Assembly: GCF_054482595.1 (NCBI RefSeq) | Contig: NZ_CM137008.1 | DNA length: 64,000 nucleotides | Strand: one strand, 5' to 3' | Shown: piece by piece, positions 11,019 through 62,103 of the stretch | How the letters are laid out: every line of letters starts with the position of its first letter | Position numbering within the stretch: the stretch's first letter is position 1 | The notes under the pieces: model-generated | The model's input: the letters and a program-made list of their open reading frames with translations, nothing else | What the model was told of the DNA's origin: nothing | Databases searched by the model: none | Program-made: the position numbers and the translations under genes

Positions 11019-11107
11019 ACTGAAGATTTTCCTGATATGCAGAGATGAAAAATGGAAAAGTGGCGTGGTGAAAACACCAGGCCGGAGCAGAAGGTTATTC
11101 CGGAGAG

Positions 11108-11476
11108 TTAATTTTTCATTTCGGGTGTCGGATAAACAGCCAGATAAACGTAACCACAGGAGCCGAGGGTGTCGGCTTCACAGGTCAGCCCCTTCGCATA
11201 CAGTGTCACGGTATGCTGATGGCGGGGATTCAGTTCACCGCTGGTGAGCATGAGCTCCAGTTGTTTCATCAGCAGCGGAAAGGCCTGGTCCAGATGGTAC
11301 GCATCCGCGTCGCTGAACCGGCCTCTGATACCGGCGCGGTCGGCAAGGTAATGCAACTGATTGCCCTCCTGCACCAGACGGGCGCCGAAACAGGGCGTCA
11401 CGGTGCAGGGTAGTCCCCACCAGGGACGGTCATGATTGTCATCGGGATGCGTTGTCCCGGAGAGTGTGTCTGACAC
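11108..11476 (-). CDS. cbeA: CbeA-family (YeeU/YafW/YfjZ) antitoxin
   Basis: GTG start at 11476 (VSDTLSGTTHPDDNHDRPWWGLPCTVTPCFGARLVQEG...). 122 aa. The track start at 11584 is an extension. Confidence 0.85.
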   Translation of the reverse strand: MSDTLSGTTHPDDNHDRPWWGLPCTVTPCFGARLVQEGNQLHYLADRAGIRGRFSDADAYHLDQAFPLLMKQLELMLTSGELNPRHQHTVTLYAKGLTCEADTLGSCGYVYLAVYPTPEMKN

Positions 11477-18850: not shown

Positions 18851-18987
18851 ACATGTATTCCCGGTGAAAAAAGACAAAACCCCCGCACACCGGAAAGGTG
18901 GCGGGGGACTCACGGAGATAATATATGTCTGAAATTATTTGGAATGCAGGTATATGTGGCTGATACAGGTCTGAATCTAATCTGACA

Positions 18988-19011
18988 GTCCGCTCTGTGC
19001 CAGTAGCGGAC
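18988..19011. repeat. Hairpin repeat copy A (GTCCGCT-N10-AGCGGAC)
   Basis: 7-bp perfect stem at the transition from island DNA of normal composition to AT-rich DNA. Confidence 0.6.
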
Positions 19012-19204
19012 GTTACTAACATAATTCAAGAAGATTAAAGTATTCCGGAAACGATTTTGTTAGAATGTTTTAATTATGTAACCAAGATACATTTTCTTAT
19101 GAGAGTATATGCGAGTTTTTATCTTATAATCAGAAGATTACAATCTGAACTTGTGATAGTAAAGTTACATAATTAATTATGTTAACATTGAAAAAATCAT
19201 AGGA

Positions 19205-19945
19205 ATGCTAGTGATAAAGCCTGAAATTACATCTCTATTCAAATACTGCCCTATCGGTAAGAATCAATTAAGTGCTCTTGCACAGCGGAAAATCTGGTAC
19301 TCAAAACCGGCAGGATTTAACGATCCTTTTGACACCCAATTTTATGTGAGAGGACAAAGGCATGTGTACGAACGGGAAATGGACTCTGAAAAATTATCAG
19401 CCATTTTTGGTGAAGATATGTCAGATGTAATGGTTTCCAAAAAACGTTCTCTTGATGAACTTTTGGACAGATTTAAAAGCGGTTTAGAAAAGTTAGGTAT
19501 TCTTTCACTAGCAAGCAGTAACAAAAATTTGCTGATGTGGTCGCATTATGCTTCTGAACATAAAGGTATGTGCTTAGAGTTTAAACGCATCGCCGGCACA
19601 GCCTTAGCAGATGATAAAATAACTAGGCCGATGAATTACAATGATAATTATCCATCGATACAGGCAAGTTCAATTTTAAATGAAGTCGATACATTATCTA
19701 ATAAAATTAGAATATTACATACAAAATCTAAACATTGGGAATACGAGCAGGAGTGGAGGCATGTAGTTGAGCAAGGTAATGAGTTACATCCTTGGCCCGC
19801 AGAATTAATTTCTGTTTATTTCGGCTGCAAGACAGATATGTCAGATATACATTTGGTAAGAAGTATAATTACGGACCCAAATGTTAATTACTATAAAGGA
19901 AATTTGTACAGTGATAAATTTGACATTTATTTTCAACCGATATAA
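19205..19945 (+). CDS. DUF2971-like orphan protein
   Basis: 246 aa in very AT-rich DNA. Motifs LFKY...WYSKPAGFNDPFD, LLMWSHYASEHKGMCLEF and KHWEYEQEWR fit DUF2971 as I remember it. GTG 19211 is an alternative start with better SD spacing. Confidence 0.6.
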   Translation: MLVIKPEITSLFKYCPIGKNQLSALAQRKIWYSKPAGFNDPFDTQFYVRGQRHVYEREMDSEKLSAIFGEDMSDVMVSKKRSLDELLDRFKSGLEKLGILSLASSNKNLLMWSHYASEHKGMCLEFKRIAGTALADDKITRPMNYNDNYPSIQASSILNEVDTLSNKIRILHTKSKHWEYEQEWRHVVEQGNELHPWPAELISVYFGCKTDMSDIHLVRSIITDPNVNYYKGNLYSDKFDIYFQPI

Positions 19946-20006
19946 TTACGTAAAAACATATATACATTAACTAATGTTAAGTATTGTAAATACATCACGA
20001 TCGATT

Positions 20007-20076
20007 GAATGTCTGCTGTTCGCTCGCAGCGGACCTTCAGTTCATGTAACTTTTCCGCTTCGTACCAAAAGCGGAC
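20007..20076. repeat. Hairpin repeat copies B1+B2
   Basis: GAATGTCTGCTG-ttcgctcg-CAGCGGAC (20011-20034) and TCCGCTT-N8-AAGCGGA (20054-20075), between the DUF2971 gene and the GNAT fragment. Confidence 0.6.
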
Positions 20077-20090
20077 GTCAAAATGTATGT

Positions 20091-20438
20091 TCAGCTAGCG
20101 TAAGTTGAGCGTTTCATAATGATGTCTCTCTGCGGGTCTGACCCAACCTGACAAATATGCTCTCCAACCTCGGTAAACCCAAGCTTACGATAAAAAGAGA
20201 TTGCCCTTGGGTTATATTCCCAGACACCTAACCAGACAGGATCCGATCCCTTTGCCTCAAATTCAGCAAAGCACTTTTGCATCAGTGCTTGCGCAAATCC
20301 TTTACCATGGTAGGGCTCATCGACATACAGGCACAGAATTTCTCTGGCATAGATGCTATTGACACAGGGAGGAAACTCTTCCCACCTTAGTTGAGCGTCA
20401 ATTTGTGGCGAAAACCCATGAGTTAGAAATTCAATCAA
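20091..20438 (-). pseudogene. GNAT acetyltransferase, N-terminally truncated
   Basis: Only the C-terminal ~115 aa remain, including the acetyl-CoA motif (HGKGFAQALM). The frame is closed by TAA immediately upstream of a TTG pseudo-start. Confidence 0.6.
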
Positions 20439-20528
20439 TTACAGGAAGGAAAAGTAAAGGAGGGGGTGGCTCTCTTTAGGAGAGCCATGAGTGGAAATGG
20501 ATATTAGAAGAAAGGAGTTGTTTCCACA

Positions 20529-21665
20529 TTAAAAATTAAGTTCATACCTATCAATTACACCATTTTTTATTCTGTAAATAACATTAGATGAAATTGACTC
20601 AAAGTAAACATACCCAACTGCTTGGATTATATTTATTAGCATGCAAGAAAATGAAACAATGAATAGTGGCAGCGAGGATGTGTTGTAGTTTACCAGGTAA
20701 ATAAATTCGCCATAATACAATGGCCCACACATTGCGAGTGCTAATGATATAAATAAAAAACCTTTTATTGCTTTAATTAAAAATATAGAGGCGTTTATTT
20801 GTTTTCTTATCTTTTCATCGCCTAAGAGATAAAGGTTGAAATCTTGAGATTTTGTTGTGTCCACTGAGAAGATATTAAGAATATGTGGGTATATCAATGA
20901 TATATCCTTTGTTTTCATAAGATTCATCATCTCTATTCTCCGCGTGACGAACAGTGAACCCAACCAAAAAACCATGAATACAGGCATAGCATAACTAGCT
21001 ATTTTGGCTATACTTATCAATGATACACTAGATGCCATGTCACCTATTTTAAATGGGATAATTAAGGTTGATTCTATGTTGACTATCTCTATCTTTGAAT
21101 TACTCTCATCTTTTATTTTTCCATCCAACCAGTTCATTGCATCATGATAGTTTGCGATTTTATCTTTTTCAGGAAGGGCCGATTCTATTTTATCCCTTAC
21201 AATATAGCCCACACTTGATTTTTCAATCTCTTTTTTCAACACATCGTACATAAAGTATTTTAACTCATTAATTGAACTCACCTCATCAAGGTCTATTTCA
21301 CGCAATCCCTCATTTATCATTTTTTTTCTAATGGAAAAGAATTCATTTTCTATTTCTGATTTATATCTTACTGTGTCCATCTCTGATTTATTTATTCTTT
21401 TTCGAAAGTCTAGAATATCAGATACGCTTTCATTAACAGCTGAAATTTGTGTTTCGATAAATTCTATTTTTCTTCTTTTTGTTTCAATTTGTTGTTTTAT
21501 ATCTTTGTATGAGGTTATTAAAGCAAATAGGTTTTGGCTGCTTAATGTAATTAATAAAGAGCAGGTGAGGAAACTAAAAATAACAACAACAATACTCATG
21601 TATAATAATCTATCAAATCTCTTTCCCAGTTCGTACAACCTATCCACTATTCTTCTCACTTTCAA
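20529..21665 (-). CDS. Orphan membrane protein: N-terminal TM, ~150-aa coiled-coil/charged region, C-terminal multi-TM domain
   Basis: 378-aa uninterrupted ORF in AT-rich DNA. Hydrophobic segments at about aa 22-50 and in the last ~150 aa. KE-rich heptad-like middle region. I recognise no family. Confidence 0.6.
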   Translation of the reverse strand: MKVRRIVDRLYELGKRFDRLLYMSIVVVIFSFLTCSLLITLSSQNLFALITSYKDIKQQIETKRRKIEFIETQISAVNESVSDILDFRKRINKSEMDTVRYKSEIENEFFSIRKKMINEGLREIDLDEVSSINELKYFMYDVLKKEIEKSSVGYIVRDKIESALPEKDKIANYHDAMNWLDGKIKDESNSKIEIVNIESTLIIPFKIGDMASSVSLISIAKIASYAMPVFMVFWLGSLFVTRRIEMMNLMKTKDISLIYPHILNIFSVDTTKSQDFNLYLLGDEKIRKQINASIFLIKAIKGFLFISLALAMCGPLYYGEFIYLVNYNTSSLPLFIVSFSCMLINIIQAVGYVYFESISSNVIYRIKNGVIDRYELNF

Positions 21666-22144
21666 AGGCGATATAGATAGGTTATATCATGCCTTCATCT
21701 TTTGAACTAAACAATCTATATCAGATAACAGTTCTCTTCGCAGTTGTGTCCCTACTCTTTGGTGGCCCGTAGGCTCCTGAGCTGGACATCGTGCGGGACT
21801 ACCTCACAGTCAATTGTAAGCAGTAAAGAGGAACGAGAACCATTCATAGAGCCTAACACACTAAATGCCGCATTGAATCCCACGACTCGGCACGATCAAC
21901 GTAAGATAATCGGAGCTTGCTGCATGGTGACAAATGGAAAATGTGAAGGTAAAGAAAACGACATTACTAACTGACGTTTGTATCTAACACTGGGGACAGG
22001 TCACCTTGAATCGATGGAAGTCTCATTATTCAGAAGCCGTGCTTCTCAGGGTTCTCCTGCAGTGGATAGTTTGTACGATTTGCTCCTCCGGACACTACGG
22101 GCCAGAAAAGTTGAAAATTGAGACTATGTACCAGGTGCCTCAAC

Positions 22145-22215
22145 GTCCGCTCATCGCTCACAACGGACCTTCAGCTCAGCCGCTCCGGCCGCTTCATGCA
22201 ATGAATGTACGCAGC
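22145..22215. repeat. Hairpin repeat copy C (degenerate)
   Basis: 22155-22180 matches 20021-20046 at 21/26 positions (CGCTC.CA.CGGACCTTCAG.TCA). GAATGTACGCAGC follows at 22203. Confidence 0.5.
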
Positions 22216-22508
22216 CAGTCAGAATATTAAGGTGCGGATTTCAGTTCACTTGTCAGCCCTGTGATGCAACAAGTTGCGGCTCCGGTTCGTGGGAGAGATG
22301 AAACGACGGTAGCTGAAGTTACTGAAATGAAGAATTCAGAGAGACTGAATGATATGCCTCACCTTTAGTGAATAGTGTAAAAACGGGAGACTCTCACCCG
22401 GGATTATCCACTCATGCTCAATGTATAATTTTCGTGTCCCTCACAGGTAAGGGCCGGATACATTTGTTGAGTACGCTGCAGAATTGGTAATCGGGGACCC
22501 TGCCGTCT

Positions 22509-22721
22509 TTAACTCCGGGTCTTATGCTGCTCATTTGCCACAAAATCCAGGTGCGCCTGCTCAATCATTTCATTCAGCATTTTTTTTGGGGGGACACCAC
22601 GACTTCGGGCAATACTTTCAAGCTGTTTGTGGATTTTTCCGGACAGTTTCAGCGGGACGGAACCATCAGCACGTTCATCACGCCTTTTTTGTTGCTCCCT
22701 GGCACTTTTCAGTTCATCCAC
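22509..22721 (-). CDS. Small ribbon-helix-helix (CopG/ParG-like) protein, orphan
   Basis: 70 aa, GTG start. A basic tail is followed by VPLKLSGKIHKQLESIARSRGVPPKKMLNEMIEQ, a strand-helix-helix pattern. No partner ORF lies downstream. Confidence 0.4.
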   Translation of the reverse strand: MDELKSAREQQKRRDERADGSVPLKLSGKIHKQLESIARSRGVPPKKMLNEMIEQAHLDFVANEQHKTRS

Positions 22722-23896
22722 AATATAGCTGCTCTTCTCGCATTTTTGCCGATTTTAAAAATGCGAACAAAACATCCGTACATGATGTACAGATTAAACT
22801 GCCAGGGACTGGTGTCAGAAAACCTCCGGTTAGCCTGCTCTTTCCGGAATGTGCCGGTTATGAAAAACCGGAAATTCAGTCTCTGTTGTAAGATGTACCC
22901 TCTGATACTACGTTTTCGTTTTCTCTGTGTATTTAACTCACTGTATTTATTTTCTTTTTAAGCCTGACTGATATTCTCCGGTCATAGTGTGCCTGATAGA
23001 CATCCCGTAACCTTCTCATTTTTATATAAAAATACCTGCACTGTCTTCAGCGCATCTGTCTCCTTTAAGTAAAAAATGTTTTCACGTATTGCTGTAAATT
23101 CATTTTAAATCAGTATGTTATCCTGATATTGCTGTCTCCTGGTTTGATGCGTAATCGTTCTGCCTTTCTGGATGATTCTGGTGCTTCCGGGTGCATTCTC
23201 CTCTGCACATGCAACAGTTCGTCATCGCCACGTGCCCAAAAGCATATAAAAACGAATCGAATCTGATCGTTTTTTCAATCGTTTTTCACAGGAATTTCGT
23301 AGGGTGTTCTCCGCTATAGCCTCCATATTTGCTGTCTTTTTCTTCATAAATCGTATGCAATATAACCAGTCTGTCAAGACATCTTCCCTGCTGTTGAGGT
23401 GACGATCTCATTTCTGGTCTTTTCCGGGAGAGAGACGGTCAGATGAGCGAGCCGGATTTACTGCCAGAGGTACTCCCCGCGGCAGAAAATAGTGCTCCTG
23501 TTTCCGCAATCCGGGATCGGCAACGTCCCATGGTTAATGCCACTTGCAGCGTCAGGCACTGCAGGTTTACGTCGTGATCTGATTTCTTCTGCACTTATCC
23601 CGATCACGGAAGTTCCCCCTGCGCAGACATCGGTTCCTGCCGACATCTCACAATACCGCCAGGCAGTCATGCAGTAACACCCGCAATGCGGTCTGCGGTT
23701 TTAAGCGCACTCTCCTGTATTCAGTGCACCGATAATGCATCATAGAAAGTCCGGGGGGAGTTACTGAATGTCTGTTAAGTGGTGCCGTGGGTGGAGACTG
23801 CTTACTTTTCCACAGTAACTGCAGTCATTCAGGATGCTCAGGAGAGAATATGTCAACGCCACGGGCCGGGCCATTTTCATGCCAGCCAGGATATTT

Positions 23897-27638: not shown

Positions 27639-28176
27639 CTGCTCTCCAATGACTAGTCTAAAAACTAGTATTAAGACTATCACTTAAATAAGTGATATTG
27701 GTTGTCTGGAGATTCAGGGGGCCAGTCTAGGCGTTGAGTAATGTGTTGATTACCTTAGAGCGCGAAAGTTTGTGGGTATGACAGTACTCATCCACAATTC
27801 GCAGTGTCTCATCACTGGTCATATTGAAAGTTATACGTGTTGTCATGATGAAGTTTTCTGTTAATCATACTGGTTGATATGCATAACATTTCATAAAAAA
27901 TACTGTTAATTCATATAATTGATTTTTTGACTGGTTTTATCCTCGTGTGGTGGAAAGCAGTATTACTGCCACTGTAGTCAGCATAAATCTATCACACAGA
28001 ACCACCGAAAATGAAGCATTGCTCAGGGGGAAGCTGCCACTCGTATGAGTTCTCTGAACCATGATAACCAGTATTTTTCGTTTTGGGTGATTTGTTTATC
28101 GTTACAGCTACATACAGTTCATGTACCATTAAAAAATAATAAAGGTTAATTAGTATTATTTATAGAAGTATGTTTA

Positions 28177-28254
28177 TGTAATTCTACCGTGTAAATGAAC
28201 CCTGTAATTCTACCTTGTAAATACACCTTGTAACCAAGTCCTGTAGAAGTCTGT
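28177..28254. repeat. Array of six TGTA(A/G) motifs phased at exactly 13 bp (two 26-bp tandem units plus degenerate units)
   Basis: The motif starts at 28177, 28190, 28203, 28216, 28229 and 28242. Segments 28177-28202 and 28203-28228 are identical at 22/26 positions. Confidence 0.85.
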
Positions 28255-29262
28255 CTCATAGAGGTATCTGTGCAGTGATATTCTCTGTAGTAGTACTTGT
28301 AACTCTGTTCTTAACTCTCTCTTCAGTAATGTAGTCCCGCAACACCTGAATATAAATCTGTAATGTTCACACACTGACTGTAACGTGCTTTGTTAAGTAA
28401 TGTCTGCTATTTTTTTTCTGTTATTTTTCCTGTTGTTTTCTGTATTTTGTTGTATGGTGTAATAACTATTCTGAACCCGTCATCACCTTTATAGCTAAGA
28501 GTATGACTTCGCCAGTGTTGATACTGTGGATAACGGTGATTAAGGAATTACTGTTAATGATCTGTTCCTGCAGCTCACCTGATGAGTTTTGGTAGTAATA
28601 CGTAAAAGAGTATGCCTCATGTCATTAAAAAGTCTTCCGGAGTGTTGTTTAACCCTGTACCTCTGTTACTCATGTAGTACGTTGCGGAAAGCTACGTTAA
28701 TTGTAATATCTGGTTATGGCGTTATGCCTTCAGTATTAAAAACATCTTTTACCGGAGAAACTGGGAAGTGGAAAGGCTTTCGGGATAACGTCAGGCCATT
28801 ATGACGATATTACGTTAATCACAGTACAAGATAACGAGAGGGTAATGGAATTTTAAACCAGAGTAGTTCCACTGTTGTTCACTGGAAAAAGTGATTTCCC
28901 ACGCGCGTTATAAGCTTACTCCAGAGGAGATGGAAGCCTTCAACTCTGCGGTCGATCACCGGCTGGCAGAACTGACCATGAACAAACTTTACGATCGTGT
29001 TCCCGCTTCAGTCTGGAAATATGTTACCTGATAAATGTTTCTGATGAAGTACAGTCGTCACAATGACATCACTTCAGATATTATCTGCGCTGTGATTGAC
29101 TGTCACGTATGCCGTTCTCTGTATGGTTCTGATACCCGGGTGTGGTCCCACTTTCTCTGTGGCGCCCGGGGAGTTGTGAACCTGCACGTCTTCGTGTGAT
29201 AACGTTTTCTTCAAAAATTACGCCAGCGCTTCTTCCTGTGTTACAGAACACGAGGAAGAAAC

Positions 29263-57572: not shown

Positions 57573-58003
57573 CTTCCCCTCCCGGTCAGTTCACGGATCA
57601 ACACAGTGAGCAGCTCTGGTGAAGGATTTTCCAGTGTCATTTTACCGTAATGGAATTCCACATGGCAGGAAGCCGCACAAGCAACTGATAATGCCTCCGG
57701 AGCAGGAGCATCTGTAGCACAGAGCGGGGTGTCGGTAAGTTCCACTGGAACCAGAGTCGGAGAGGCCGGAAAAGATTGTGGTACTGTAGGGCCTACAATA
57801 GTTGGAGGTATTCTACGAGAAATACGTATTTCTCTTTGCCAGAGGCGTAGCCATTTAAAAATCAGGTTGTTATCAACGCCATGTTCCCGGGCCAGTTGTG
57901 CAACATTGGCATTTGGTTTCGAAGCCAGTTCAACCATATGAAGCTTAAATTCATTAGAAAATATCCGGCGGGTCCCAGTGCGCCAGTCTGTAGATTTATC
58001 CAT
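57569..58003 (-). CDS. IS66 OrfA (TnpA accessory protein)
   Basis: RRIFSNEFKLHMVELASKPNANVAQLAREHGVDNNLIFKWLRLWQ is an HTH. ATG 58003; the track uses TTG 58006. Confidence 0.8.
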   Translation of the reverse strand: MDKSTDWRTGTRRIFSNEFKLHMVELASKPNANVAQLAREHGVDNNLIFKWLRLWQREIRISRRIPPTIVGPTVPQSFPASPTLVPVELTDTPLCATDAPAPEALSVACAASCHVEFHYGKMTLENPSPELLTVLIRELTGRGR

Positions 58004-58348
58004 CAATAGAACTCCGTCTAATTTAGAAGGAGCTCTAATTTAGTCTGCAAGGATCAGGTGTTACAGACGGCACTGGCTTTACGTTTACAAACAGTACGTG
58101 ATGAGTATGAGGCTTTTTTATCTGTATATAATCCCTCATTCTGTAAATTGGGATAGGGCAATTTCACAATCATCCTCCTCCCATATCACCAGTATATACT
58201 GAGCCGTGTTTATCTATTTGGTTAAAATTCGCTACAATCCCATTTTCTCTTTTGGGAATATAACAGTCTCCATTGTCTCTTTATTGGTTAATGGAGACTG
58301 TGTTTAAAGGAAGAAATCAGGAGTGATTGACAGGGTACCTGTCAGCAA

Positions 58349-59659
58349 TCAATACAATTCAGATTCCAGTTTTCCGTTCCCTGCAATTTTATTTAGTCCG
58401 GGAGAGTTCAATCTCTCCAGACATAACGAAAACAGTTCAACACCTGTATCCAGCACATTTTCATCAAAATCAAAATCAACTTCGTGATGACCTGCTTTTA
58501 AATCACTGCCAAGTATTATATATGCAGCTTTTCCTCCTCTCTTCTGTACACGGCGAATAAGGATCGTTGCATCTTCACTGCCCCCAAATGATTTATCTGT
58601 CAAAGACATGTTCATATCTTCTTGTGCTATATAGTGTATCAGATTGACAAGTAAAGGGTCATTATGTAAATCCGTTGCTTCACCAACCACTTTGTACTCA
58701 AAACGTAAACCAAATATGGAAGAAATACCTTGTGCTATTTTTAGAGCATGTTCACGCATGTATTGATTTATTGTTTCCGTTTCTCCACGAACTTCAAGCT
58801 GCATCCTTGCAAAAGACGGGATTATGTTCCTTCCTTCACCTGCGTTTAGAGTGCCAATATTTATCCGGGACATACCTTCACCATGGCGTGGAATGGCAAG
58901 TAATTGCGTTGCACAGTGACAAGCTGCTGCCAGTGCATTATTTCCCAGGTGAGGATTTACACCAGCATGTGCCGGAGTACCATAGAAAAAGAAATCCATT
59001 TTTGTCGTACACAACAAATCTGTAGGTGAAGCGACAACATTTCCTGTAGGAACTCCCATACCAATATGTGCAGAAAGGAAGTAGTCGCAGTCATCAAGAA
59101 TACCACCTTCTGCAATAGGTTTTGCACCGCGAACGCCTTCTTCTGCAGCCTGAAAAATTAGCTTAATTTTCCCGCATAACTTATGGTTATTTTCAGATAC
59201 CCATTGTGCCAATCCTAAACCAATCGATATATGACCATCATGTCCACATGCATGCATTAAGCCAGAGTGTATGGATGCAAATCCCATTTTTTCAGGAATA
59301 TGATCTTTCGATTTTGATTCACTTACCTGTACACAATCAATGTCAAAACGAAACGCAGTGACAGCTCCATTTTTTCCTGTATCCCATAAAGCAACACACC
59401 CTGTAAAGCCATCCATTTCATCCAGCAATTCATGGGGAACGCCTGAATCAACTGCACGTTTTATACTATCTGCAACTTCAGTTGCATTACGGCCCATAAT
59501 ATATTCTATTGACAGGTATTTATTCCCCGTAATAACCTGCCATCCCATACCACGCAGAATAGTAATTATCTTTGACGTTGTGATAAATTCGCACCACCCA
59601 CTTTCCGGAATATGGTGAAATTCTCTCCGCCATTTTTGTAACTGATTCAGTTCAGACAT
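58349..59659 (-). CDS. M20D-family amidohydrolase (AbgA/HipO-like)
   Basis: 436 aa with the metal-binding motif MHACGHDGH and EEGVRGAKP. Confidence 0.75.
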   Translation of the reverse strand: MSELNQLQKWRREFHHIPESGWCEFITTSKIITILRGMGWQVITGNKYLSIEYIMGRNATEVADSIKRAVDSGVPHELLDEMDGFTGCVALWDTGKNGAVTAFRFDIDCVQVSESKSKDHIPEKMGFASIHSGLMHACGHDGHISIGLGLAQWVSENNHKLCGKIKLIFQAAEEGVRGAKPIAEGGILDDCDYFLSAHIGMGVPTGNVVASPTDLLCTTKMDFFFYGTPAHAGVNPHLGNNALAAACHCATQLLAIPRHGEGMSRINIGTLNAGEGRNIIPSFARMQLEVRGETETINQYMREHALKIAQGISSIFGLRFEYKVVGEATDLHNDPLLVNLIHYIAQEDMNMSLTDKSFGGSEDATILIRRVQKRGGKAAYIILGSDLKAGHHEVDFDFDENVLDTGVELFSLCLERLNSPGLNKIAGNGKLESELY

Positions 59660-59671
59660 ATACGCCTCCTG

Positions 59672-60961
59672 TTAAAGGAATAATAATGCAATAAACAATA
59701 CCGTCACAATCATTCCGGGGGCAGTGCGTTTTGCAATTTCAACTGGATTAACTCCAGCCAGACCGGCACAGATAATAGTTGCACCAGCCAACGGAGACAT
59801 GTTTCTCCCCAGCGCAGAAGCCAGCATAACTGCAGCACCCAGAGTATTTGTATCGTAACCAAAATTGTTCGCATGTGGTGTGACAACTTCATTGAATGCG
59901 AATGCAGTCGCATCCCCTGTTCCGGTTATAAGTCCCATCAGGAATGGCCCCAATGTACCGCCCCAGCGGGCAAATTCTGGTGAGTCAATAAGAAATCTGA
60001 TAAACACATCAATGATACCAACAGATTTTAAACCTTCAATGAAAACAGCTGCGGCAATTATGATCCCAAGAATATTTGCATATGATGTCCCCATACCCTC
60101 AAAGAAGCTGGAAACTAATTCTTTGGGATTGGATTTACTGACAATCAGGGCATAAAGACAACCGAGAATCATTGCGGCTGGAACGGTTATTTTAGTCTCT
60201 CCAAGAAAACCAAATTCAGCCAGCATAAGTAATGCTATGGGAAGAAATGGTGCTACAGATTTCAGATAAAAACAGATACCACGGTCAGTGAACTCAACCT
60301 GTGTTTGTTCTGATATGTTTCCTGCAGAATCACATTTTGTTTCTTTTCTTACAATAGCAACAACTGTAAGAATAACAGCACATATTACACCACATGTTAT
60401 CGTAGTCGGAGTATGGAATACAACGAATTCCATTAATGGTGTTTGTGATATTTTAGATATAAATGCATTATGTGCAACACCGGGATTGAGGTAAGCACCT
60501 ATAGTTCCTGAAAGGATAGCTGCCCCGGCTATTGCAGGATGAATACGTGCTGAAATAAGTAATGGTATCAACGTTGCACCAACAGCAGCTGATGCGCCAG
60601 CAGCAGATGGAATCGCGATGCAAATAATAAAACTGACGGTAACCGCAGCAGGAATAAGAAAGATACCAAGACGAGATAATCCTTTCGTTAGAAAATGAAC
60701 CAGGCATGTATCACAACCAGTGAATTTCATAACACAGGCAAAGCCCATACTGGTACAAATAGCCTGAATAAGGCCGGACTCAGTCATTCTGCTTGCAAAT
60801 GCCGAAAATGCGTTTAAAGGTGACATGGCAACTATACATAGCAGAAGACCTGCACCAATTAGTGTCGTTCGTGTGTCGTATCTTTTTATCAAAAGCACAA
60901 CTGTGATTATCAGAATCACACATCCAGTTATCACGTTAAACATGAGATCCACCTCCTTCAA
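59672..60961 (-). CDS. DcuC/YfcC-type (anaerobic C4-dicarboxylate carrier-like) membrane transporter
   Basis: 429 aa, highly hydrophobic throughout. Located 12 nt upstream of the M20 gene. ATG 60943 is an alternative start. Confidence 0.55.
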   Translation of the reverse strand: MKEVDLMFNVITGCVILIITVVLLIKRYDTRTTLIGAGLLLCIVAMSPLNAFSAFASRMTESGLIQAICTSMGFACVMKFTGCDTCLVHFLTKGLSRLGIFLIPAAVTVSFIICIAIPSAAGASAAVGATLIPLLISARIHPAIAGAAILSGTIGAYLNPGVAHNAFISKISQTPLMEFVVFHTPTTITCGVICAVILTVVAIVRKETKCDSAGNISEQTQVEFTDRGICFYLKSVAPFLPIALLMLAEFGFLGETKITVPAAMILGCLYALIVSKSNPKELVSSFFEGMGTSYANILGIIIAAAVFIEGLKSVGIIDVFIRFLIDSPEFARWGGTLGPFLMGLITGTGDATAFAFNEVVTPHANNFGYDTNTLGAAVMLASALGRNMSPLAGATIICAGLAGVNPVEIAKRTAPGMIVTVLFIALLFL

Positions 60962-61078
60962 AGATAGATAATCTTTACTTTATGTGATTTGCTCAAATAT
61001 TGATCATGAACAAAAAAAACAATTAACCGGGGATACTATTATGATGGAGGTGATAACAGAAAATTATCAGGCGAAAAA

Positions 61079-61996
61079 ATGAAACATATGCCTAAACTTC
61101 AACAAATTAAATTTTTTAATGAAATAGTCCTGTGCGGAAGTTTAAGATCTGCCGCCCGTAAAATGAATATATCTCAGCCAGCATTAAGCAGAACGATAAA
61201 AGAATTGGAGAATGTATTAGGATGTAACCTTCTGATTCGAACAAGGGATGGTATCGTTTTAACAGAAGCTGGAAAGATATTCTCGGTCCATTCACGTATG
61301 ATTCTTGAAGAGGTTGAAACTGCAGCTCTTGAAGTTGCGAAAGTAAATATAGATAACACAGGGAAAGTAGCTTTTGGAATTTCTTCGCTGTTTGGCGTAA
61401 CAATACTGAATAATGTACTTGATAACTTCCGGATGAAATATCCGAAAACGCGTGTGATGATAAGAGAGGGACAGTTGTCTTCCCTTATCCCTTACCTGAG
61501 AGAAGGTGTTCTGGATTTTGCAATGGGTACATTAACAAAAGACATGCCAGTTGGAGATTTTATTGCGGTTGAATTGTTTAACGCACCGTTCACTATAGTG
61601 GCAAGAAAACACCATCCTTTAAGGAACTGTACATCAATTGATGAACTTGCAACTGCAAGATGGGTATTCCCGGAAACTCAAATGGGATACTATCATTATA
61701 TATCCCGTCTTATTCCCTTTGGACATCCTGATGAACCATATGCTCCAATATTTACCGATTCGGTAGTTTGTATTATGAATCTTGTTCTCTATGATGACTA
61801 TATAACGGTTCTCTCCAGAGCAAGGTTACAGGAAGCAAGATTCAAAGAAATATTGTGTTCAATTCCTGTTAAGTATCAACTACCCGTTAGCCAGTACGGG
61901 CTTATTTATCCACGAAAAAGGTTAATGACGGCACCAGCACAAATAATGATTGAATATTTTCAACAAGAGATACAACGATATGACTGGAATGGATGA
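61079..61996 (+). CDS. LysR-family transcriptional regulator
   Basis: 305 aa with N-terminal HTH FNEIVLCGSLRSAARKMNISQPALSRTIKELE. Divergent from the transporter/M20 operon. Confidence 0.85.
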   Translation: MKHMPKLQQIKFFNEIVLCGSLRSAARKMNISQPALSRTIKELENVLGCNLLIRTRDGIVLTEAGKIFSVHSRMILEEVETAALEVAKVNIDNTGKVAFGISSLFGVTILNNVLDNFRMKYPKTRVMIREGQLSSLIPYLREGVLDFAMGTLTKDMPVGDFIAVELFNAPFTIVARKHHPLRNCTSIDELATARWVFPETQMGYYHYISRLIPFGHPDEPYAPIFTDSVVCIMNLVLYDDYITVLSRARLQEARFKEILCSIPVKYQLPVSQYGLIYPRKRLMTAPAQIMIEYFQQEIQRYDWNG

Positions 61997-62103
61997 GCAA
62001 TACCCGGAATGATGGTGCCGTTACGGGGAAGTCATCTTCACAGAAATTTTCAGTCCATTAGCATTCCGGTATTCGTACAACTTCCTTTGGTGGAGAGTAA
62101 ACA

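Follow-up and report, generated by a model that had tools for sequence, protein, structure and literature searches.

A cassette-borne four-transmembrane protein of an Escherichia coli island as a candidate for a new envelope-acting exclusion family

What is the role of a membrane-protein gene that lies directly beside a damaged acetyltransferase gene in the cargo of an Escherichia coli island, and did it reach this position by inserting into that neighbor? The gene lies in a stretch of 64,000 nucleotides (nt) from NCBI RefSeq assembly GCF_054482595.1, contig NZ_CM137008.1 (the window, to which all coordinates given without a locus number refer). There, as had been noted earlier, an uninterrupted open reading frame (ORF) runs through AT-rich DNA from 20529 to 21665 on the minus strand, with a guanine-plus-cytosine (GC) content of 30.5%. 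The original prediction, made from the letters alone, described an orphan protein that had displaced the 5' end of a GNAT gene, and likened its architecture to that of membrane-disrupting effectors or sensors of abortive-infection systems. Its observations are confirmed here with corrections, and its interpretation is partly supported. The ORF protein belongs to an undescribed family, judged by sequence comparison, and is encoded in a mobile cassette among defense genes; by this association, it is a credible candidate for a new family of exclusion proteins acting at the cell envelope.

The gene and its putative promoter are located as follows.

20529-21647, minus strand: gene of the four-transmembrane (4TM) protein, 372 amino acids (aa), WP_000375615.1; GTG start codon at 21647, stop codon at 20529-20531
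21681-21689, minus strand: putative promoter element of the extended -10 type (TGATATAAC), lying 34 nt before the start codon

In its longest reading the frame encodes 378 aa, the length originally given. All homologs, however, share the N-terminus MDRLYELGKRF, and two of them (loci L006 and L010) have an ATG at that codon, so that the start is the GTG at 21647 and the protein has 372 rather than 378 residues, in agreement with the start called by RefSeq. The six codons at 21648-21665 are probably 5' untranslated region. The -10 element is kept as TGATATAAT in L004, TGATATTAT in L006 and TGATATCAT in L010, in homologs that otherwise share only 76-79% nucleotide identity, and this conservation among diverged copies suggests that the gene has a promoter of its own. 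Pairwise ratios of nonsynonymous to synonymous substitution rates (dN/dS) range from 0.09 to 0.43 among seven orthologs and from 0.13 to 0.31 against the window copy; inside the clade that lacks the partner gene described below, they are 0.09-0.31, down to 56% protein identity. By these measures, the ORF is a real protein-coding gene under purifying selection. Of 5426 complete E. coli genomes, 170 carry it at ≥99% identity.

Contrary to the orphan label, the protein has relatives: a word-seeded search returned 20 clusters with 28-99% identity to it, and a profile search across 1.84 billion representatives retrieved 147 at E ≤ 1e-3, 53 of them at E ≤ 1e-10. The suspicion that it belongs to no recognized family, and may be novel, was nevertheless borne out, as neither the query nor 64 relatives gave a family match in Pfam, NCBIfam, PHROGs or PADLOC. 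For the query, PADLOC-DB v2 returned only matches of the coiled-coil type (E = 0.004-0.02), and we regard the Filament, DnaD-like and PD-T4-9_A coiled-coil matches as library noise. Among the 64 relatives, the Pfam scan gave five scattered DUF matches in one member each (E > 0.002), and no PADLOC model was matched by more than one member, PDC-M15A being found in 1 of the 64. Neither the query nor these relatives showed similarity to Wzz, TraS/Eex, colicin-immunity or other envelope families in Pfam, and no match to Wzz, MotA/ExbB, CPBP/Abi, 4HB_MCP or Sie-type PHROGs came near the curated threshold. At the level of sequence profiles, then, this is a member of an undescribed family.

The hydrophobic layout first described was reproduced by Kyte-Doolittle analysis, which places hydrophobic helices at about residues 23-46, 214-241, 290-317 and 329-355 (378-aa numbering), the first being separated from the other three by a helical stretch of ~165 residues rich in K, E and I. 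This four-TM layout is common to most of the 64 members analyzed. A first AlphaFold2 run with 13 close sequences was poor, with a predicted local distance difference test score (pLDDT) of 66.8, and was replaced by a run on the 64-sequence alignment, which reached a pLDDT of 93.8 and a predicted template modeling score (pTM) of 0.84. In this model, helix 2-37 comprises an amphipathic N-terminus and TM1, and is followed by helices 39-56, 58-85, 92-117, 126-143, 148-156 and 167-182, a four-stranded sheet (185-209), TM2 (210-245), a loop with a short strand and helix, TM3 (278-320), TM4 (326-353) and a C-terminal beta-hairpin (356-369). The K/E/I-rich region, originally read as a long coiled coil, is thus predicted to be a compact bundle of 18-28-residue helices with a four-stranded sheet. 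The structure and profile searches that had been proposed as checks yielded a confident fold without a known relative: the best match was at E = 0.058 for Foldseek against BFVD (viral predicted structures) and at E = 0.08 for a sequence-profile search of the PDB. The protein has no solved or viral fold relative in these collections beyond generic helical bundles.

Conservation is unevenly spread over this model. Seven columns are invariant across the 64-member alignment (W228, T235, R236, E239, P254, H255 and N258), and G8, R10, E12, R13, R107, P194, L257, R295 and E350 are nearly so; the short amphipathic N-helix, which would be cytoplasmic, carries the conserved motif LGKRxERLLY, and TM4 has conserved polar positions (within the close clade, N339 and Q342; family-wide, a Q...QE pattern). 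The charges flanking TM2, TM3 and TM4 fit the positive-inside rule with the TM2-TM3 loop and the C-terminus inside. We infer an inner-membrane protein in which the domain at 41-209 is periplasmic and the TM2-TM3 loop of ~45 residues is cytoplasmic. Given this topology, the conserved residues would lie on the cytoplasmic face, with the exception of R107 and P194. The periplasmic domain of ~165 residues is the most variable part of the protein.

The periplasmic location of the large domain is supported by a second, secreted protein found with distant relatives. In all seven independent distant loci, which cover every distant relative with available downstream DNA, the 4TM gene is directly followed by, and at its 3' end mostly overlaps, a gene for a partner of 107-142 aa. 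They lie in Citrobacter braakii, at a filamentous-prophage end, next to an MmeI-type restriction enzyme, in two metagenome loci, in a P2-like phage, and in a prophage beside its integrase; the two-gene form also occurs in mobilizable integrative elements of Yersinia rohdei and Enterobacter kobei. The following partner genes were located, each directly downstream of the 4TM gene.

L002, 11184-11537: partner gene
L028, 6091-6492: partner gene
L030, 2706-3116: partner gene
L036, 6515-6886: partner gene
L037, 6127-6471: partner gene
L026, about 11020-11411: partner gene

Common to the partners are a signal peptide, a pair of invariant cysteines and a W-x2-G-[YF]-x5-N motif. They match no Pfam family, one member having a sub-threshold HdeA match. 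A profile of the partner family recovers the partners in all seven loci, and has no match in the window or in any examined locus of the clade of 372-375-aa proteins to which the E. coli copy belongs. The most parsimonious ancestral state is a two-gene operon, from which the enterobacterial 372-375-aa clade lost the partner. In Citrobacter braakii, the two-gene module is directly followed by a gene for a 173-aa protein (L002, 11830-12351) that matches HEPN_AbiU2 only weakly (E = 5e-4, short of the Pfam cut-off).

The second part of our question concerns how the gene came to lie beside the GNAT gene, for which the following features are relevant.

20091-20438, minus strand: GNAT stub, annotated as a 115-aa coding sequence (WP_000569129.1), homologous to GNATs only at 20094-20396
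20467-20487, minus strand: spacer hairpin with an 8-bp stem (UGGCUCUC/GAGAGCCA) and a 5-nt loop
20054-22173, minus strand: mobile unit of 2.12 kb, which recurs at 93-95% nucleotide identity with ends that agree within 12 nt

The GNAT gene is truncated at its 5' end as predicted, though by more than the third proposed: the stub corresponds to residues 72-172 of an intact 172-aa GNAT, at 96% identity, so that 71 residues (41%) are missing. Its first 14 codons are unrelated to GNAT. Pfam Acetyltransf_1 matches the stub at profile positions 60-116 only (E = 8e-13); the acetyl-CoA-binding region is retained (segment YHGKGFAQ) and the full N-acetyltransferase fold is absent. Plasmids of Salmonella and Serratia and a different E. 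coli island encode the intact protein (WP_015965750.1, located by tblastn) at the end of a five-gene block (DHDPS-like, B3/4, HTH, GNAT, GNAT). Compared with PaiA-like GNATs, the stub shares the C-terminal 101 residues, including the acetyl-CoA-binding region, but lacks the N-terminal 71 residues, begins with 14 foreign codons and is interrupted by nonsense mutations in L004 and L025, two of four aligned copies. Sequence comparison thus marks WP_000569129.1 as a decaying, 5'-truncated pseudogene fragment.

A simple insertion of the ORF into this GNAT gene at the window locus, as the original prediction had it, was rejected, since the missing 5' part is found nowhere in the 64-kb window and the stub travels with the ORF in four other contexts. 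The 2.12-kb unit consists, in order, of a repeat half carrying hairpin 2, an upstream region of ~490 nt with the promoter, the ORF, the spacer, the GNAT stub and a repeat half carrying hairpin 1. Further copies lie at a prophage end between SRAP and umuC (L004/L005), in an enterobacterial chromosome between unrelated genes (L014/L015), in Kluyvera cryocrescens NBRC 102467 (L025) and, with the stub, in a 59-kb viral contig (L034); a locus search based on narrow alignments found one species-representative genome only. Homologs at 76-79% nucleotide identity share only the ORF, without the GNAT, the similarity ending exactly at the stop codon. As ORF, spacer and stub recur as one block that more distant homologs lack, the junction arose once, elsewhere, and predates the window locus, with the stub a passenger since.

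The hairpin lies exactly where it had first been noticed, in the 130-nt spacer (20399-20528) between the ORF stop codon and the GNAT stub. The 96 nt around it fold with -18.9 kcal/mol (z = -4.3 versus shuffles), and the hairpin is retained in L025 and, with a single stem substitution, in L004 and L014. A reading as an intrinsic terminator was rejected, as this stable structure has no U-run and was not called by the terminator scan; it may act as a weak terminator.

The ends of the unit lie inside a structured repeat. The unit starts with TGAAGGTCCGYTGYGAGCGATGAGCGGAC and ends with GACGTCCGCTTTTGGYACRAAGCGGA, which are the two halves of a ~75-nt element composed of two hairpins with the same stem: hairpin 1 (GTCCGCTTttggtacgAAGCGGA), a spacer and hairpin 2 (GGTCCGCTgcgagcgaacAGCAGAC). 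The window holds the following copies.

20004-20083, minus strand: complete repeat copy between the DUF2971 cassette and the ORF unit (nhmmer E = 1e-21)
22140-22210, minus strand: second complete copy, at the upstream end of the unit and in the same orientation (nhmmer E = 7e-10)
18976-19020, no strand assigned: partial single-hairpin copy at the left array edge, between the YeeP-like GTPase gene and the DUF2971 cassette

The partial copy is matched weakly by nhmmer on either strand (E = 1e-4 to 6e-4). A pattern search for the repeat gave 2 matches versus 0.02 expected, and exactly at the element, from 22142, the window starts to match the island backbone of ~1200 other E. coli genomes. In the solo insertions L014 and L004, the unit has the hairpin 2 half only at its 5' end and the hairpin 1 half only at its 3' end. 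The repeat is found in 872 of 5426 E. coli genomes, always in intergenic positions. In arrays it separates single genes, and its copies share one orientation irrespective of the strand of the genes (5/5 copies in L024, 3/3 in L031, 2/2 in L032 and 2/2 in the window). Its stems pair in 69% of cells, versus ~40% in slid controls, but covariation is no better than in shuffles (156 of 500) and the loops are as conserved as the stems; we therefore treat the repeat as a conserved DNA site and have set aside its reading as a proven RNA. An Rfam scan of 18900-23500 gave no match.

Many of the cassettes between these repeats carry defense genes, either established or candidate. Outside the window, arrays were delimited in E. 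coli islands and prophages at the following positions.

L024, 1166-5020: repeat array
L031, 3107-6085: repeat array
L032, 5998-7467: repeat array
L034, 4655-6004: repeat array

Their cassettes encode PD-T7-5 in L032 (E = 8e-102, repeat on both sides), PD-T4-3 in L031 (E = 6e-138), an HNH effector-like protein in L034 (repeat on both sides), and a HEPN protein and DUF4160 in L024; another repeat-bounded cassette encodes what RefSeq names a "CBS domain-containing anti-phage protein". PD-T7-5 and PD-T4-3 are among the listed defense systems from Vassallo et al. 2022 (PMC10952713). A search for the PD-T7-5 cassette in E. coli gave essentially one fixed context and is uninformative on its independent movement. 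In the window, the ORF unit is adjoined by a further cassette.

19205-19945, plus strand: DUF2971 cassette; Pfam DUF2971, PADLOC defense candidate PDC-S31 at E = 2.5e-58 over the full length

This gene also matches PHROG 1762 and forms a repeat-bounded cassette of its own. Aristaios, a DUF2971 protein with an ADP-ribosyltransferase-like fold, is an experimentally shown lactococcal anti-phage system (PMC11381338). Given the defense genes in adjoining and equivalent cassettes, a defense or exclusion role of the ORF is a reasonable expectation. A literature search on WP_000375615.1, PDC-S31 and integron-like defense arrays in E. coli found nothing relevant.

The locus itself is the cargo part of a CP4-44-like island, beside cadC, in a region that the chromosome of E. 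coli O157:H16 Santai and several other strains share at 100% identity. The island contains genes for an Ag43 autotransporter, a YeeP-type GTPase and CbtA/CbeA, an antirestriction gene and a RadC-like JAB gene. The ORF lies in a 3-kb patch of 33-39% GC, against 52-57% in the flanking kilobases of the island; RefSeq names the ORF a hypothetical protein, the downstream gene a "GNAT family N-acetyltransferase", and the next a DUF2971 protein. In other strains, the slot of the ORF holds either a dynamin-family pair or a TonB/ABC iron-uptake operon.

The neighborhood survey of homologs that had been suggested as a check likewise yields a picture of mobile cargo. Relatives lie at prophage ends, adjoining SRAP and UmuDC genes; in the GpS/GpV slot of a P2-like phage; beside a phage integrase; at the end of a filamentous-prophage module; in the leading region of a conjugative plasmid; on a ~4-kb contig carrying Rop; and in mobilizable integrative elements of Yersinia and Enterobacter; MobA and shufflon genes accompany relatives in mobilizable elements. 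Their neighbors include an MmeI-type restriction enzyme, a weak AbiU2-like HEPN protein, DUF4365, RelA_SpoT with DUF4231, and AAA_15/21 ATPases. In other words, the family occurs as accessory cargo of prophages, plasmids and islands among defense genes, as is looked for in the exclusion and abortive-infection class. UmuD/UmuC-like polymerase genes adjoin the ORF in three contexts (L002, L004/L005 and L010) and SRAP (YedK-like) in two, in differing orientations; this adjacency may mean no more than that prophages and plasmids have a variable region in common. On a prophage-like contig, a distant relative lies ~1 kb from genes for a pore-forming colicin (Pfam Colicin, E = 2e-49) and a colicin E1-type immunity protein (L037, 7323-8938).

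We tentatively read the ORF protein as an anti-phage exclusion determinant acting at the cell envelope, and put this at somewhat below an even chance. Its two parts differ in strength: from the gene company and the phage moron slots, we have moderate confidence in an anti-phage or anti-mobile-element role, and lower confidence in action at the envelope, which is suggested by the variable periplasmic domain and the secreted ancestral partner. The 2.12-kb cassette, with its own promoter, moves among islands, prophages and chromosomes. Under this proposal, the variable periplasmic domain would detect or obstruct the genome-delivery apparatus of a phage; and the conserved membrane and cytoplasmic-face module, with the polar residues of TM4, would carry out the response, which might be an entry block or a gated ion leak. 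The gene would once have been translationally coupled to the small, secreted two-cysteine partner, without which the enterobacterial clade would now work.

Comparison with known systems gives this proposal some context. Prophage- and plasmid-encoded superinfection-exclusion proteins of the membrane, such as P22 SieA, T4 Imm, HK97 gp15 and P1 Sim, resemble the ORF in being encoded by small, AT-rich, stand-alone "moron" genes with their own promoters in prophage accessory slots, and its product in being inner-membrane proteins with an envelope-exposed part; moreover, a secreted protein belongs to the ancestral module, and P1 Sim is likewise secreted. The ORF protein differs from them in lacking any sequence or profile similarity (PHROGs), in its larger size of 372 aa, and in having four TMs, a helical ectodomain of 165 residues and a polar cluster on the cytoplasmic face. 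With Kiwa KwaA and lambda RexB, it shares the tetra-spanning inner-membrane layout, carriage by mobile elements and a proposed response to envelope or membrane events. However, KwaA and RexB need cytoplasmic partners (KwaB/DUF4868 and RexA), whereas the ORF protein has none and its ancestral partner is periplasmic; there is also no PADLOC match, and a large domain lies between TM1 and TM2. No DUF4868 was found among the neighbors scanned in ~15 contexts. Like PD-T7-5, PD-T4-3 and PDC-S31, the ORF is a single gene between copies of the ~75-nt repeat in cargo arrays of islands and prophages, but those proteins are soluble and nuclease-type or ADP-ribosyltransferase-like, and this one is a membrane protein without an enzymatic signature.

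Several points weigh against an envelope-acting exclusion determinant. The protein has no similarity to any known defense or superinfection-exclusion family in PADLOC or PHROGs, and its island slot is not exclusively defensive, given the iron-uptake operon found there in other strains. The topology rests on charge bias and the signal peptide of the partner, and the flanks of TM1 are ambiguous in charge. The most conserved residues, which would face the cytoplasm, suit a signaling, enzymatic or channel role equally. Loss of the partner could mean an altered or reduced function, and a few E. coli genomes (H33, H50 and H53) carry frameshifted alleles of 1136 rather than 1137 nt, annotated as two hypothetical proteins.

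Some of these observations invite other explanations. The protein could be an abortive-infection effector, as first imagined, that senses infection and then, by an oligomeric pore or depolarization, kills the cell before phage is released. A multi-TM product of a lone cargo gene set among defense genes would suit such a role, and the polar TM4 residues and invariant charges at the membrane boundary are compatible with a gated pore. We nonetheless consider it unlikely, as there is no cytoplasmic sensor domain, the sole large domain being by our topology periplasmic and the ancestral partner secreted, and as PADLOC gives no robust membrane-effector match (1 of 64 members against a 2TM effector model, E = 0.007); it departs from envelope exclusion in the execution step only. 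Also improbable, though to be taken seriously, is an accessory envelope function on mobile elements that has nothing to do with defense, such as conjugation entry exclusion, tolerance of bacteriocins or envelope stress, or surface modification. The iron-uptake operon in the island slot, the relative in a plasmid leading region and those among MobA and shufflon genes, the relative near the colicin and immunity pair, and the HdeA-like similarity of one partner sequence could all be read in this way, but none of these neighbors recurs across contexts, whereas defense-type neighbors and phage moron slots do, and the Pfam searches described above found no similarity to envelope families.

Lastly, the E. 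coli copy might be a non-functional relic left after loss of the partner and hitch-hiking beside a dead GNAT gene. The partner is absent from every examined locus of the 372-375-aa clade, the adjoining stub is decaying and some alleles are frameshifted; yet purifying selection is seen inside this very clade, the promoter and N-terminus are conserved, and the clade has spread over islands, prophages, plasmids and chromosomes, so that we regard a relic as highly improbable.

How the cassettes are moved is a related question, for which integrons offer a comparison. The unit resembles an integron cassette in being a discrete promoter-plus-gene module whose ends lie inside a structured repeat, and in that solo copies carry opposite repeat halves, as would result from opening a circle inside the site; the arrays resemble integrons in that the sites are co-oriented whatever the gene strand. 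Unlike integron cassettes, the repeat-bounded cassettes have their own promoters and hold genes in either orientation. No attC-like cores (RYYYAAC/GTTRRRY) were seen by inspection of 16 aligned repeat copies, and no IntI-type integrase is annotated in the island by RefSeq. The only recombinase candidate associated with the arrays is a tyrosine recombinase of 200 aa that consists of the Pfam Phage_integrase catalytic domain only, and is found no more than 5 kb from the repeat at four loci.

L039, 1629-2231: 200-aa recombinase gene
L032, 8990-9592: 200-aa recombinase gene
L024, 8505-9108: 200-aa recombinase gene, frameshifted
L022, 4366-4884: 200-aa recombinase gene, 20 nt from hairpin 1 and behind an intact GNAT

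This recombinase is found in 863 of 5426 E. coli genomes, accompanies some arrays and is absent from the window. That it is the cassette recombinase is possible, the association being suggestive only. A bolder synthesis would make the repeat the recombination site of an undescribed cassette-shuffling system, analogous but unrelated to integrons, that assembles arrays of single-gene anti-phage systems, possibly by means of this recombinase; the ORF protein would be one of its cassettes and a new envelope-acting defense family, ancestrally of two genes with a secreted partner. Taken as a whole, this synthesis is speculative and we think it rather doubtful.

If the ORF protein does block phage, it would represent a new defense family with no detectable relative among known systems, a confident predicted fold and an envelope-facing sensor domain, in a field where envelope-level immunity is far less explored than cytoplasmic sensing of nucleic acids. 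The one-gene and two-gene forms found in nature offer a ready comparison for the role of the partner. Moreover, the packaging of the ORF may be more unusual than the protein: as the same repeat brackets the ORF unit, PD-T7-5 and PD-T4-3, it could serve as a cheap genomic flag for single-gene defense candidates, and may reveal how defense genes are shuffled among prophages, islands and plasmids.

Two further observations concern the surroundings. Just past the cassette array, a 70-aa ORF lies at 22509-22721 on the minus strand, which RefSeq gives as an N-terminally incomplete hypothetical protein. Elsewhere in the window, other patches of low GC content (37-43%) are found at 28001-29000 and 58001-62000, and may be further horizontally acquired cargo.

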